Shown: positions 36,001 to 42,000 of the stretch, piece by piece
How positions within the stretch are numbered: the first letter of the stretch is position 1
Layout of the letters: each line of letters opens with the position of its first letter
Source of the DNA: Escherichia coli O157:H7
Lineage (GTDB): Bacteria > Pseudomonadota > Gammaproteobacteria > Enterobacterales > Enterobacteriaceae
Assembly (NCBI RefSeq): GCF_013167455.1
Contig: NZ_CP038328.1
DNA length: 64,000 bases
Direction: 5' to 3' (one strand)
Made by a program: the position numbers

Positions 36001-39000
36001 ACTGTTGACACAAAAACAGTTTTTAATTGTAGATTACATACACCAACCACCCACCCCGCCCCACAGAACGCCGGGCAATACTTCGAGTTACCAAGCAGTG
36101 GTCAGGGGGTAAGTAGCCAGCCCGAGGCGTATGAACATGACGGCAGGGTTCAACTTTAATAACTATGCAGCAGGTTTTTGTTCCGCTACCCGGCGTTAAG
36201 GGGAAATGAGGTCAACATGGATACTATCGATCTTGGCAACAACGAATCTCTGGTGTACGGCGTGTTTCCCAACCAGGACGGTACATTCACCGCGATGACG
36301 TATACCAAAAGCAAAACGTTTAAAACCGAAAATGGTGCCCGTCGCTGGCTGGAAAGAAACTCAGGTGAGTGATATGGATTTCGACACAATCATGGAAAAG
36401 GCTTACGAAGAATACTTCGAAGGCCTTGCCGAAGGCGAGGAAGCTCTCAGCTTCAGTGAGTTTAAACAGGCGCTTTCCAGTTCGGCAAAATCTAACGACT
36501 AACGGAGTTAAAGATGGAATTTAAAGATTTACTAAAAGAAATCCAGGAAATTGCAGCACATGCACTTCACCAACGTCTGAACGAAGTTGAATTAGAATCT
36601 GCAACGAAGAAATACATTGATAATATGGCTCGTAATGTGCGCGATGCGTTTACCGGATTGTACTCTGTTTCGGTAACAAACAACCAGAATACTGAAGAAA
36701 CTGCAAAGCGGATTGCCTCGGTGATGGGTTTTCATGTCGAGGAAAAGTATTCAAAAAAAGAATTCTGGAAAACTACAAAAAAATTGCAGAGCGAGAACTG
36801 TCATCTCCTGCGGCAATCGCTTCTTTCTATGAGGAAAGTTATTCAGATGACACAGGATTACCGGAACTGCTCTCATTACTTGAAAAATTCGGAATTATCA
36901 TGAAAGGGACTGCGTCGGCGGATTTCACATACTCAATGATGGCTGCTGATGGAGAGCCTTTTCCTCCCGAACTTAAAATAACCCCCGGCAATCATCCGAT
37001 GGTAACAATAAGAGCAATAGAGAATTACTGGTTTAATCCAGTTCAACAATAGTTGGTCTTTGCAATATTTTTAATGGGCCACTACGCCCTTAATCTCGGG
37101 CGGCGTTTAACTCTTTATTCAGTAAATCAGACTGATACTGATTTGGCTTTGTAATGATACTGTCAAGTTTTGATATATGAAATTCAACATGTTCTGGACA
37201 GTTAAAAATGTAATAACCGCCCTTCTCTAAAAAGCCAGAAAGAGCGTTACAGGCAGGGCATGGTTTGTTTGGCATTTTATCCTCCATTAAGGGCTGAATT
37301 AAAAATGGAGACCAACACGCTGCTACGTGTGGTCGTGCGCCGGACACAGATAAGAATCCGGCACTGACAGTTTACTGAAAGGATATATCCCTGAAAAGTC
37401 AGGGCATAACACGAAAGTGCACGGCGAAGTCCTTCTCCCTTAGAGCCGTCGTTAAATTTAATTCGACCGTGCGCTTCCGGTTGTGGCAATCCGCGAAATG
37501 GCGCGGCGGTAAGTATGGCGGGGTTATTCTTTCCCCGTTGAGGACACCGGGTTGTCAGGTTGACCATACGCTTAAGTGACAACCCCGCTGCAACGCCCTC
37601 TGTTATCAATATTCTGGTGACATTTGGCGGTATCAGTTTTACTCCGTAACTGCTCTGCCGCCCTTTTTTAAAAGTGAATTTTGTGATGCGGTGAATGCGG
37701 CTCAGCGCACGCGGAACAGTTAAATCGGTAAAGCGGTCATTTGCTGAGTAACGAGAATGCTCTGTATCCGGCGTTAATTGTTAACTGGTTAACGTCACCT
37801 GGAGGCACCAGGCACCGCATCACAAAATTCATTGTTGAGGACGCGATAATGGAAAAGTTATCATGTAATGCCAGCACGTCTGAACTTCGTTTCGAAATTG
37901 GCGTTATCACTGGAGACAAAACATTTATTGAAGACGCCATTAAGCAGAGAAAACTCGAGCAGGACCTGTTAAATGAAGTATGCATTCCTTCAATGCTGGC
38001 TCGTCTGGACCTGCTGCAAAAAGGATATAAACAATGAATACAACATTTGCACTCGTTCTGACAGTTTATCTTGTTTCCGGCGAATCTCTTGAGCTGGTGA
38101 CTGGCTTATACGGTTCAATGAAAGAATGCATGGCTGCAGCAGCAGAACAAAAAATTCCCGGTAACTGTTATCCGGTAGATAAAACTACTCACACTAATAA
38201 TAACGAAATACCGGCAGGACTTTAAAACAGCACCGTAATTAATATCCGGTTTCATTTTTATATGCCAGCAATGGCAGGGATTTGTTCACCCTTAAATCTG
38301 TAATGAGGTTAAAACACAATGAGTAAAATCTTTATTTGCGCTGCTATTCCTGACGAACAGGCCATAAAAGAAGATAGCGCTGTTGCGGTGGCCACTGCCA
38401 TTGAAGCCGGTGATGAGCGTCGCGCACGCGCAAAATTTCACTGGCAATTTCTGGAGCAATTCCCGGCAGCTCAGGACTGCGCTTATAAATTTATTGTCTG
38501 CGAGGATAAACCCGGCATACCCCGCCCTGCCCTCGATTCCTGGGATACCGAATATATGCAGGAAAACCGCTGGGATGAGGAGTCAGCTTCCTTTGTACCG
38601 GTCGAACCAGAATCCGATCCGATGAACGTCAATTTTGACAAGCTGTCCCCTGAAGTACAGAACGCAGTCCTGGTTAAATTCGACACATGCGAAAACATCA
38701 CCGTTGATATGGTGATTAGCGCACAGGAATTACTACAGGAAGACATGGCAACATTCGGCGGACATATCGTTGAAGCGTTGATGAAAATGCCAGAAGTTAA
38801 CGCCATGTATCCTGAACTTAAACTGCATGCCATCGGGTGGGTTAAGCATAAATGTGAGCCTGGCGCTAAATGGCCTGAAATTCAGGCAGAGATGCGCATC
38901 TGGAAAAAACGTCGCGAAGGTGAACGCAAGGAAACCGGAAAATACACGTCTGTTGTTGATCTCACCCGCGCCAGAGTCAACCAACAGAACACTGAAAACG

Positions 39001-42000
39001 CTGCTGAAAAAACCGGGGCTGTCACTGTTGCCATTCGCCGCGAATACAAACAGACATGGAAAACACTCGACAATGAACTGGCCTGCGCCCTCTGGCCCGG
39101 TGATGTGGATGCAGGAAACATTGACGGTACCATCCATCGCTGGGCGACAAATGAGGTTATCGACAAGGATCGCGAAGACTGGAAGCGTATCTCAGCATCA
39201 ATGCGCAAACAGCCCGAAGCACTTGGCTATGACCGTCAGACTATTTTTGGCCTTGTTCGCGAACGTCCGATCGATATTCACAAAGATCCCGTTGCACTGA
39301 ACAAATATATCAGTGAATACCTGACGACAAAGGGCGTGTTTGAACATGAAGAAACAGACCAGAGCTCTACTGATGCTCTCCAGCCGTCAGCAGCACAAAC
39401 TGCTCCAGTGGAGACGGCAGAATCCGATACTCAAAAAAATGAAATCCTGGTGGAAGCTGAACCATCTGTAGAGCGTGAAGGACCATTTTATTTCGTCTTT
39501 ACCGATAAGGGCGGGGAAAAATACGGCAGGGCAAACAAACTTTCTGGTCTGGACAAGGCGCTGGCTGCCGGCGGTACCGAAATCTCAAAAGAAGAATATT
39601 TTGCCCGAAAAAATGGCACATACACGGGCTTACCGCAAAATGTGGATACCGCTGAAGATTCCGAACAATCAGAGCCGGTAAAAGTTACCGCTGACGAAGT
39701 AAACAAAATTATGCAGGCAGCCAATATCAGCCAGCCTGACGCCGATAAATTGCTTGCTGCATCACGTGGTGAATTTGTTGAAGGGATTAGCGACCCGAAT
39801 GATCCGAAATGGGTGAAAGGGATCCAGAGTCGCGACGCTGAGGACCAGAATCAGCCCAACGTGAAACAAAATGAGCCAGAAGCGGAACAAAACAGCCCGG
39901 ATACGCAACAAAACGGGCCAGAAGAACAACAACCAGAACCAGCAGTGCAACAGGAACTGGAAAAAGTTTGCACCGCATGCGGTCAGACCGGTGGCGGCAA
40001 CTGTCCTGACTGTGGTGCGGTGATGGGGAACGCAACCTACCTGGAAACATTCGATGAAGAGAATCAGGCTGAAGCTCAGAAAAATGATCCGGAGGAAATG
40101 GAAGGCACTGAACATCTGCACAAGGAGAACACTGGCAGCGATCAGTATCACGCCAGCGATAATAAAACTGGCGAAACAGCAAATCCCTTAATTAAAGTGA
40201 ACGGTCATCATGAAATCTCATCCACCAGCAGGTTGTGGCACCATCTGATGATTGACCTTGAAACAATGGGAAAAAATCCTGATGCGCCAATAAACTCTAT
40301 AGCCGGTAAGTTTTTTGATCCGGCAACCGGAGAGATGGGGCCAGAATTCAGCAAAACTATCGATCTGGAAACCGCAGGTGGGGTCATCGATCGGGACACC
40401 ATTAAGTGGTGGCTGAAACAGTCACGCGAAGCACAATCCTCCATTCTGACCGATGAAATCACGTTGGATGATGCACTGCTGCAATTCCGGGAATTTATCG
40501 ACGAAAACTCCGGTGAATTTTTTGTTCAGGTCTGGGGTAACGGTGCAACTTTCGACAACGTGATTTTACGCCGTTCATATGAACGGCAGGGGATCCCCTG
40601 CCCGTGGCGTTACACCAATGATCGCGATGTAAGAACGATGGTTGCTCTGGGACTGGTGATGGATTTCGACGCAAGAACGACTATTCCATTCGAAGGTGAA
40701 CGCCATAACGCCCTGCACGATGCACGTTACCAGGCGAAATACGTTTCAGCCATCTGGCAAAAACTGCTCCCGAGTCAGGCTGATTTTTGATGTTCAACCC
40801 ATATCGCCGCCCACCAGCTATAGTGGCGGCGGTCATGCTGTAAAGGCACGTGACCACATGTACGAATTAACTCTATCTCCAGCAGAGATTAAAGAGATCA
40901 CGAAATACGAGCGATACACAAAACAGCAACACCAGTTAAGACTGCACGGCATCCCATTTGTAATCGGCCCTAAAAACGAACCCATAGTTCTCCGCAGGGA
41001 TATTCCACACGGTCTGACAACGATGCCAAAAACATCTGAACTGGTTTCTGCTGAACCCGATTTTGAGGCGCTGAACAATGGGAAGACCAAGAAAAAATAA
41101 AAAAGATAATGTACTGCCACCGCGGGTTAGATCGAATGGTTACAGTTACGTGTGGAAACCCGAAGGAAGTACAAGAAGTATAGGGCTAGGAAGAGTGCGG
41201 AAAACCAGCGTAGCTAAAGTCTGGCAAAATTATGAACTGGAAAAAGCAAAACTCCACAACATAATGACCGTAGCTAAATTGTGGCACATGTTTATGGACT
41301 CCCCTGCATTTACAGAACTGGCCCCCCGAACCCAAAAAGATTATCGACAACATCAGAAGGCGTTGCTGATGGTATTCGGAAAAGTGCTTGCTGATAATGT
41401 CAAAACTGAGCAGGTAAGAATTTTCATGGATAAACGAGGGCTTGAGAGCAAGACCCAGGCAAATCATGAACTGGCAAGCCTGAGTCGAGTATACGGGTGG
41501 GGATATGAGCGTGGGTATGTGAAGAATAACCCATGCAAAGGAGTCAGAAAATTCTCTCTTAAAGCCCGCACTGTTTACATCACCGATGAACAGTATGCGG
41601 CGATATATGCGGAAGCAATTCCACAGTTACGCATTGCAATGGAGATTTCCTATCTCTGTGCGGCAAGACTCGGTGATGTGCTTGAGTTGAAATGGCAGGA
41701 TATTATGGATAAAGGGATCTACATTGAGCAAAACAAAACCGGCACCAAACAAATCAAGGAATGGTCACCGCGATTACGTACAGCGATCCAGTTAGCCCGA
41801 AATGTATCTTCCTGTACATGCGAATATGTGATCAATACAACCAAAGGCGGGAAAGTCATAGCTAAAACGCTGAATAACTGGTGGAATCAGGCTAAACGCG
41901 CAGCCGAGCAAAAAGTTGGCGTTCCGTTCGGGTGCAATTTTCACGACATAAAAGCCAAGGGGATCTCAGATTACGAAGGCAGCAGTCGCGACAAACAAAT

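Follow-up and report, generated by a model that had tools for sequence, protein, structure and literature searches.

Among characterized proteins, the closest relatives of the predicted exonuclease discussed here, the product of an 823-codon gene in a prophage of Escherichia coli O157:H7 (analyzed in a 64,000-nucleotide stretch of contig NZ_CP038328.1 from assembly GCF_013167455.1, hereafter the window), are two 3′-5′ DNA exonucleases, DexA of phage T4 and its E. coli homolog EcD (PMC12153337, NAR 2025). The same work solved the structure of DexA and reported that EcD cuts T4 DNA and, when supplied from a plasmid, protects cells against T4. Recognition of 5-hydroxymethylcytosine (5hmC) was attributed to DexA residues W152 and D169 and a dimer-tetramer switch to S87 and D90; W152 was reported to be needed for cutting of 5hmC-containing DNA, and D90 has been linked to activity on unmodified DNA. 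EcD was presented there as a bacterial defense gene, and prophages are nowhere mentioned (PMC12153337). In the accessible part of its text, a survey of lambdoid recombination modules describes DnaQ-like 3′-5′ nucleases in or near these modules, as well as a “Tritos” class of four phages that have a nuclease and many Chi sites and lack annealase and anti-RecBCD functions (PMC12315714, Genome Res 2025).

The O157:H7 gene (window positions 38319..40790, plus strand) is a complete coding sequence (CDS) with an ATG start that carries the RefSeq label “exonuclease” and matches PHROG 2082 over its full length. Its 823-amino-acid (aa) product is 100% identical, end to end, to WP_000034474.1, a RefSeq CDS found in many O157:H7 genomes. 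The original prediction, made from the nucleotide sequence of the window, had described a single large open reading frame (ORF) at these positions, in the slot directly upstream of xis-int where a RecE/RecT pair normally sits, and both points hold: only a DUF4224 xis-like gene and the integrase gene follow. It is close to certain that the encoded protein is a nuclease-only alternative to the cassette formed by the RecE nuclease and RecT, mounted on one and the same scaffold.

The region of similarity between the 823-aa protein and RecE of the Rac prophage covers residues 262-625 of the former and 278-591 of the latter (38% identity overall, E value of 4e-59), including the zinc ribbon. Its last ~170 aligned residues (455-625, matching RecE 455-591) are ~80% identical, as judged by inspecting the alignment, and similarity ends at residue 625. 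At the DNA level, similarity ends at gene nucleotide 1874, which places a mosaic junction at codon 625 (40192..40193, plus strand). The junction falls at the identical nucleotide in comparisons with K-12 recE and with the chimeric YdfE-N/RecE-C gene of locus L098, in which a YdfE-type N-terminus and a RecE C-terminus form one 889-aa ORF. The link to RecE is stronger than originally supposed, the noncatalytic middle and the zinc ribbon being common to both proteins.

The association of the two C-termini with recT was followed in 80 IMG/VR loci that are closest to this gene in the shared RecE-like middle module and in a comparison set of 80 loci with the RecE PD-(D/E)XK C-terminus. All 80 closest loci encode the DEDDh C-terminus and none of them has recT, whereas recT lies directly 3′ of the gene in all 80 RecE-C loci, with an identical start-to-end offset in 79. 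Both kinds of N-terminus are represented among the 80 DEDDh loci (YdfE type in 53, Rac-RecE type in 24), and L098 supplies the YdfE type on RecE-C. Each N-terminal type is found with each C-terminal type, and the presence of recT strictly follows that of the PD-(D/E)XK domain.

The part of the protein that lies beyond the junction is a predicted DEDDh exonuclease domain (Rv2179c-like or DexA-like, residues 641-813, 40239..40757, plus strand) of a family with 3′-5′ polarity. The Pfam family Rv2179c-like (PF16473), the sole domain found in our Pfam scan, covers model positions 1-177 of 177 at residues 641-813 with an E value of 6.9e-62; YdfE_N, YdfE_C, and Rv2179c-like are the families given in the precomputed Pfam annotation of its identical counterpart in the database. 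The Exo I, II, and III motifs are complete, with D646 and E648 in MIDLET, D746 in FDNVIL, and H796-x4-D801 in HNALHDARYQ, and the domain has the features of the RNase H-like DEDDh fold. These residues align with the catalytic positions of DexA and are the same in all 38 alleles compared, in agreement with the DEDDh-type motif set that had been recognized at the C-terminus from the start. The top sequence match of the domain in the Protein Data Bank (PDB) is T4 DexA (8kel, E value of 1e-6, residues 643-790). The biochemistry of the 823-aa protein, as predicted from these motifs, is fairly secure; its biological role is not.

No annealing partner was detected. Searches of the 64-kb window by tblastn with RecT, lambda Exo/Bet/Gam, P22 Erf/Abc1/Abc2, a Gam-like protein, Gp157, and the Rad52-like domain described below returned nothing, and the same panel returned nothing from the 80 DEDDh loci, the complete Tritos genome, and six further loci. 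The annotations of the whole prophage likewise include no annealing-protein gene. There are also more divergent DEDDh fusions, with 51-57% identity in the exonuclease domain; the three that were checked (52-57%) have the same layout and stand alone before xis-int. In three divergent DEDDh fusion loci (L198 4521-4859, L199 4522-4860, and L201 4515-4859), the gene immediately upstream encodes an ~112-aa Rrf2-family protein that replaces dicB/ydfD. No recT gene had been missed next to the ORF, and its homologs proved to be solo, with an annealase at 0 of the 80 closest loci and at none of the three divergent ones. The domain also occurs by itself: a stand-alone 189-aa version in Salmonella, called as a gene and flanked by neighbors of its own, is located directly before a xis-int pair of the same type. 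Stand-alone “MIDLET...” proteins of 174-183 aa from E. coli were left out of this comparison, as some of them cocluster at 90% with proteins of 606-807 aa and may be gene-caller fragments of disrupted genes.

These data bear on the most conservative explanation of the locus, namely, that it encodes an ordinary RecE-type recombinase whose partner or PD-(D/E)XK core has been missed, or else a decaying pseudogene. Many database records do name the protein “exodeoxyribonuclease VIII,” and the prophage that carries it is defective. However, a search for the canonical RecE PD-(D/E)XK core, which the original prediction had named as a finding that would refute it, found none: the Pfam DUF3799/PDDEXK nuclease domain is absent from the 823-aa protein, and the NCBIfam RecE equivalog model NF007259 scores 260 bits against a cutoff of 1269, with the match confined to residues 453-625. 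With unrelated C-termini, no annealase in the window, the 80 loci, or Tritos, ratios of nonsynonymous to synonymous substitution rates (dN/dS) of 0.06-0.15 in the folded parts, and conserved catalytic and zinc-binding residues, this explanation is effectively refuted and can hardly be credited any longer.

Two C-terminal cassettes do not exhaust the repertoire of this scaffold. Residues 1-345 served as the query in an exhaustive search without profiles, which yielded 174 representative clusters, and 69 long members were aligned. According to Pfam, 25 of these 69 have an Exonuc_VIII (RecE-type) C-terminus, 15 have the PD-(D/E)XK domain DUF3799, and 11 have the Rv2179c-like domain. Another 16 end in a third domain with the motif KKSLTDAxKKALSxLGFSADV, for which sequence methods gave only a marginal Rad52 match (E value of 0.013). 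Fusions of this type occur in the same genomic slot, with a Sipho_Gp157 gene after them; the third version of the scaffold carries a predicted Rad52-fold annealase. One of the 69 long relatives contains a Pfam RecT domain in the same polypeptide (E value of 5e-9), which could be a scaffold-RecT fusion or a read-through gene call. Mainly because the scaffold recurs with three different DNA-end or recombination effectors, we take the DEDDh protein to be an enzyme that acts on DNA ends and belongs to the recombination slot rather than unrelated cargo. A bolder generalization, which we regard as doubtful, is that the RecE/YdfE N-terminal region could be a general delivery platform onto which temperate enterobacterial phages load interchangeable DNA-end effectors (a 5′-3′ exonuclease, a 3′-5′ exonuclease, or a Rad52-type annealase), with the DEDDh version defining a host-dependent recombination strategy in which, for a phage that has neither annealase nor Gam, a scaffold-targeted 3′-5′ exonuclease would prepare the phage DNA ends for host RecBCD-Chi-RecA.

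The scaffold itself (all coordinates on the plus strand) begins with a YdfE-type alpha/beta plus helical domain (residues 1-255, 38319..39083) that corresponds to the precomputed Pfam YdfE_N and for which the AlphaFold2 (AF2) model has a predicted local distance difference test (pLDDT) score of >90 at residues 1-220; comparison of residues 1-255 with PDB folds gave no convincing match. This domain is 89% identical to the product of the ydfE pseudogene in the Qin prophage of strain K-12, which occupies the equivalent place, after dicB-ydfD. Next come a helical domain common to RecE (RecE residues ~278-360) and kept across the whole scaffold family (residues 240-345, 39036..39353) and a small beta-hairpin/helix domain with a pLDDT of 91-96, the most strongly constrained segment of the protein (residues 385-435, 39471..39623). 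The RecE-like middle module (residues 455-625, 39681..40193) is mostly acidic and disordered and ends at the mosaic junction. Within it lies the four-Cys zinc ribbon shared with RecE (C551, C554, C562, and C565, CTACGQTGGGNCPDCG, 39969..40013, pLDDT of ~78), whose cysteines are invariant in 38 of 38 alleles. The predicted model thus consists of confident folded units (residues 1-220, 240-345, and 385-435) plus the zinc ribbon, joined by low-confidence linkers with a pLDDT of <50 (residues 346-383, 439-455, 501-547, and 573-635). The combined fraction of Asp and Glu reaches 0.23-0.25 in residues 506-545 and 576-640. The internal zinc ribbon and the long acidic low-complexity middle noted in the original prediction are therefore both present. 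In contrast, its view that the N-terminal 600 residues could not be assigned has been superseded, as residues 1-255 are of the YdfE type and residues 262-625 are RecE-like.

The gene is maintained under purifying selection. Median pairwise dN/dS values among 38 distinct YdfE-type alleles were 0.115 for residues 1-220, 0.149 for residues 240-345, 0.056 for residues 385-435, 0.125 for the zinc ribbon, and 0.151 for the exonuclease domain, as opposed to 0.80 and 0.63 for two linkers. An intact ORF of at least 750 aa is present at 69 of the 80 DEDDh loci. Some match to the gene was found in 4,796 of 5,426 complete E. coli genomes, and in 3,526 of 5,426 a match extended over at least 80% of its length; the number of matching places per genome has a median of 2 and a maximum of 10. 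We are dealing with a well-populated, catalogued gene family rather than with a new kind of system, and the function proposed for it below is a prediction.

The element that harbors the 823-aa ORF is the O157:H7 lambdoid prophage adjoining yccA, which has a Qin-type immunity and early-left region. Genes on the plus strand are arranged in the order helix-turn-helix (HTH) repressor, a relB/relE-like pair, small ORFs, DicF, dicB, a ydfD-like gene, the 823-aa ORF, the xis-like gene, and int. The relB/relE-like pair (35461-35939, plus strand) encodes a 63-aa RelB/PaaA2-like antitoxin and a 95-aa RelE/ParE-like toxin and separates the repressor gene from the remainder of the early-left operon. The DicF antisense small RNA (37612..37663, plus strand; Rfam RF00039, 76.9 bits) is encoded upstream of dicB, and dicB and the ydfD-like DUF1482 gene (37849..38225, plus strand; identified by ORF calling and annotation) are directly 5′ of the 823-aa ORF. 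On its 3′ side, the DUF4224 xis-like gene and the tyrosine integrase gene (40858..42097, plus strand) mark the prophage end that adjoins yccA. The early-left operon is of the dicBF type and DicA repressed, and the 823-aa ORF has a distal position in it, as the last cargo gene before xis and int. No consensus-like promoter was found directly 5′ of the ORF, which is weak negative evidence. The prophage is defective and carries effector genes; it contains insertion sequence (IS) elements, and its terminase, portal, capsid, and tail genes are frameshifted or truncated. In the same prophage of strain PV15-279, the IS66-family element ISEc8 splits a DUF977 gene (L001 1-1532; L088 8058-10921), tccP2 and an espV fragment are found at the far end, the lysozyme gene is truncated, and several virion genes are frameshifted or truncated.

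Taken together, these features suggest a working model in which the DEDDh domain, with its intact active site, is tethered by flexible acidic linkers to the RecE/YdfE scaffold. The gene would be cotranscribed with DicF, dicB, and ydfD; since the operon is DicA repressed, its expression is placed after induction or infection, and the protein would presumably not be made in the quiescent lysogen. The enzyme would then digest DNA from free 3′ ends through a two-metal mechanism involving D646, E648, D746, H796, and D801. A 3′-5′ enzyme is unable to generate 3′ tails for an annealase, and there is neither an annealase nor a RecBCD inhibitor, so a RecET- or Red-type annealing pathway is not expected. 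Phages with the DEDDh gene would consequently have to use host recombination (RecBCD-Chi-RecA), in which the enzyme would trim or clear 3′ ends. We consider this model as a whole, a scaffold-tethered DEDDh exonuclease that lacks an annealing pathway and serves host-dependent recombination, to be slightly favored. Its components differ in strength, the molecular identity of the protein and the cassette swap being close to certain and the role being a coin toss.

Several observations weigh against this model. According to the available text of the lambdoid survey, 3′-5′ exonucleases usually inhibit homologous recombination (PMC12315714), which makes a positive role in host-dependent recombination speculative. 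The function reported for EcD, the closest homolog that has been tested, is that of an anti-phage nuclease, as opposed to a recombination factor (PMC12153337). The family includes RNases, such as Rv2179c, so that the substrate need not be DNA. The pLDDT of the exonuclease domain is no better than moderate, and the timing of expression is read from gene order alone. Finally, the prophage, although defective and no longer a functional phage, has 5 Chi sites on the top strand and 4 on the bottom strand in 42 kb, with no enrichment or strand bias; the corresponding numbers for Tritos, 9 and 2, count in favor of the model. Two of the five “top-strand” Chi sites (window positions 40222 and 40811; minus-strand Chi, CCACCAGC on the plus strand) are located inside and just after the region coding for the exonuclease domain. 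In Tritos, one Chi site is also found inside the homologous gene (record position 27079).

The properties of EcD raise the alternative that the protein functions in anti-phage defense or interphage competition, with the exonuclease degrading the DNA of superinfecting or coinfecting phages, e.g., the modified DNA of T-even phages, and thereby protecting the lysogen or the induced cell. For this comparison, the sequence of EcD (“HREX”; HAK9828821.1) was rebuilt from the published primers, of which the reverse one is one base off, and an IMG/VR match. The resulting 189-aa IMG/VR protein starts with MIDTET, has A78 as published, and is probably EcD. This EcD-like protein is 38% identical to the C-terminal domain of the 823-aa protein (E value of 1e-34). 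Its gene (L178 6401-6991, minus strand; L202 6001-6570) is itself prophage borne: the element is P2-like, and its early region has the order int, C repressor, cox, ..., EcD-like gene, dam methylase, ..., gpA. The protection that EcD provides against T4 (PMC12153337), its prophage location, and the persistence of intact copies of the O157:H7-type gene in many prophages, some of them defective, with up to 10 places per genome, all speak for a defensive function. Nevertheless, the early-left operon that contains the gene discussed here is repressed, and the gene comes after the toxic dicB and has no promoter-like site of its own. The equivalent of DexA W152 is T766, in an alignment column that is variable across the subfamily (T/C/Y/H/R/W/S) and occupied by Trp in the EcD-like protein, and the equivalent of D90 is D718, an Asp that EcD lacks. 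With T766 at the W152 position and D718 retained, the protein is not an EcD-type 5hmC-specific enzyme by the criteria of PMC12153337. None of the PADLOC defense models matched the full-length 823-aa protein, and the EcD-like protein itself produced only a weak match to a DEDDh (CRISPR-associated) model. A defense function would also leave unexplained the fusion to the RecE scaffold and the presence of putative annealases on that scaffold. On balance, this explanation is unlikely.

The comparison with DexA suggests yet another role, host DNA scavenging or shutoff during lytic growth, in which host DNA would be degraded to nucleotides. DexA is the closest relative with a solved structure and has two established roles, of which scavenging is one, and D90, whose equivalent D718 is conserved here, has been tied to activity on unmodified DNA (PMC12153337). 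The placement of the gene in an early lytic operon would also fit. Against it, there is no partner endonuclease in the operon, and the fusion to the scaffold would again be unexplained. Since the DNA of lambdoid phages is itself unmodified, the enzyme would have no means of distinguishing self from host; to our knowledge, no temperate lambdoid phage degrades the host chromosome. We therefore view a scavenging role as improbable.

The preference for long DNA, assumed in all the above, could in principle be wrong. The Pfam family is named after an exoribonuclease, Rv2179c, and a Cap18-like DEDDh enzyme has been reported to cleave a 2′-5′ dinucleotide intermediate (bioRxiv 10.1101/2025.03.04.641389). 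The 823-aa protein might accordingly be an anti-defense factor that hydrolyzes RNA, oligonucleotides, or signaling nucleotides, such as intermediates of the cyclic oligonucleotide-based antiphage signaling system (CBASS), the multicopy single-stranded DNA (msDNA) of retrons, or nanoRNAs. However, its nearest relatives, DexA and EcD, are DNases, and the context of a scaffold shared with RecE and the putative annealases points to DNA ends, which makes an anti-defense hydrolase of this kind quite improbable. Should the favored role in host-dependent recombination be worked out, it would explain the handling of DNA ends in Chi-rich lambdoid phages without Gam and Red, as well as the contribution of the extra 600 residues of full-length RecE to recombineering. 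Irrespective of that, the routine label “exodeoxyribonuclease VIII” needs to be corrected, as the protein is not RecE; on the same scaffold, the catalytic cassette of RecE appears to be replaced by one of reversed polarity that comes without an annealase.

Much about this gene was already known, including its PHROG, Pfam families for all three parts of the protein, thousands of database records, and a published nuclease-only class with a close homolog. Our literature searches found no papers on Rv2179c-like domains in prophages or on Qin ydfE as an exonuclease, and only incidental mentions of ydfE together with dicB. Among the known systems, Rac RecE/RecT shares with the O157:H7 protein a homologous noncatalytic region with a four-Cys zinc ribbon, and some prophages join the RecE N-terminus to DEDDh. 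The Rac protein differs in having a RecE-type N-terminus instead of the YdfE-type first 255 residues and a PD-(D/E)XK catalytic end of 5′-3′ polarity instead of the DEDDh domain with its predicted 3′-5′ polarity. DexA of T4 (8KEL/8KEN) belongs to the same Pfam family, has the same DEDDh set, and has equivalents here for D169 (D782) and D90 (D718); on the other hand, identity is only ~30%, and DexA is a stand-alone protein of 227 aa from a virulent phage, with extra loops and without the scaffold or the zinc ribbon. EcD likewise belongs to the family and is probably the product of an early prophage gene, in its case of a P2-like prophage; it is also a stand-alone protein (189 aa), with Trp at the W152 position and Ala (A78) at the D90 position, as opposed to T766 and D718. 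Rv2179c of Mycobacterium tuberculosis, which gave the Pfam family its name, and Cap18 of CBASS share the DEDDh fold and catalytic motif; they are only 15-22% identical to the domain, act on RNA and 2′-5′ dinucleotides, respectively, and come from other genomic contexts. A close parallel is provided by Tritos, with 87% DNA identity between its gene and the O157:H7 gene and with the same dicF-dicB-ydfD-exo-xis-int layout. As in the Tritos-type nuclease-only module, the early-left nuclease gene of the O157:H7 prophage is accompanied by no gene for an annealase, a single-stranded DNA-binding protein (SSB), or an anti-RecBCD function. The survey text, to the extent that it is accessible, neither states the nuclease type of Tritos nor describes a swap on the RecE scaffold (PMC12315714). 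What the present comparison adds to these systems is the exact position of the junction and the strict covariation of recT with the catalytic cassette, the Rad52-like third variant of this scaffold, and the prophage context of the probable EcD gene.

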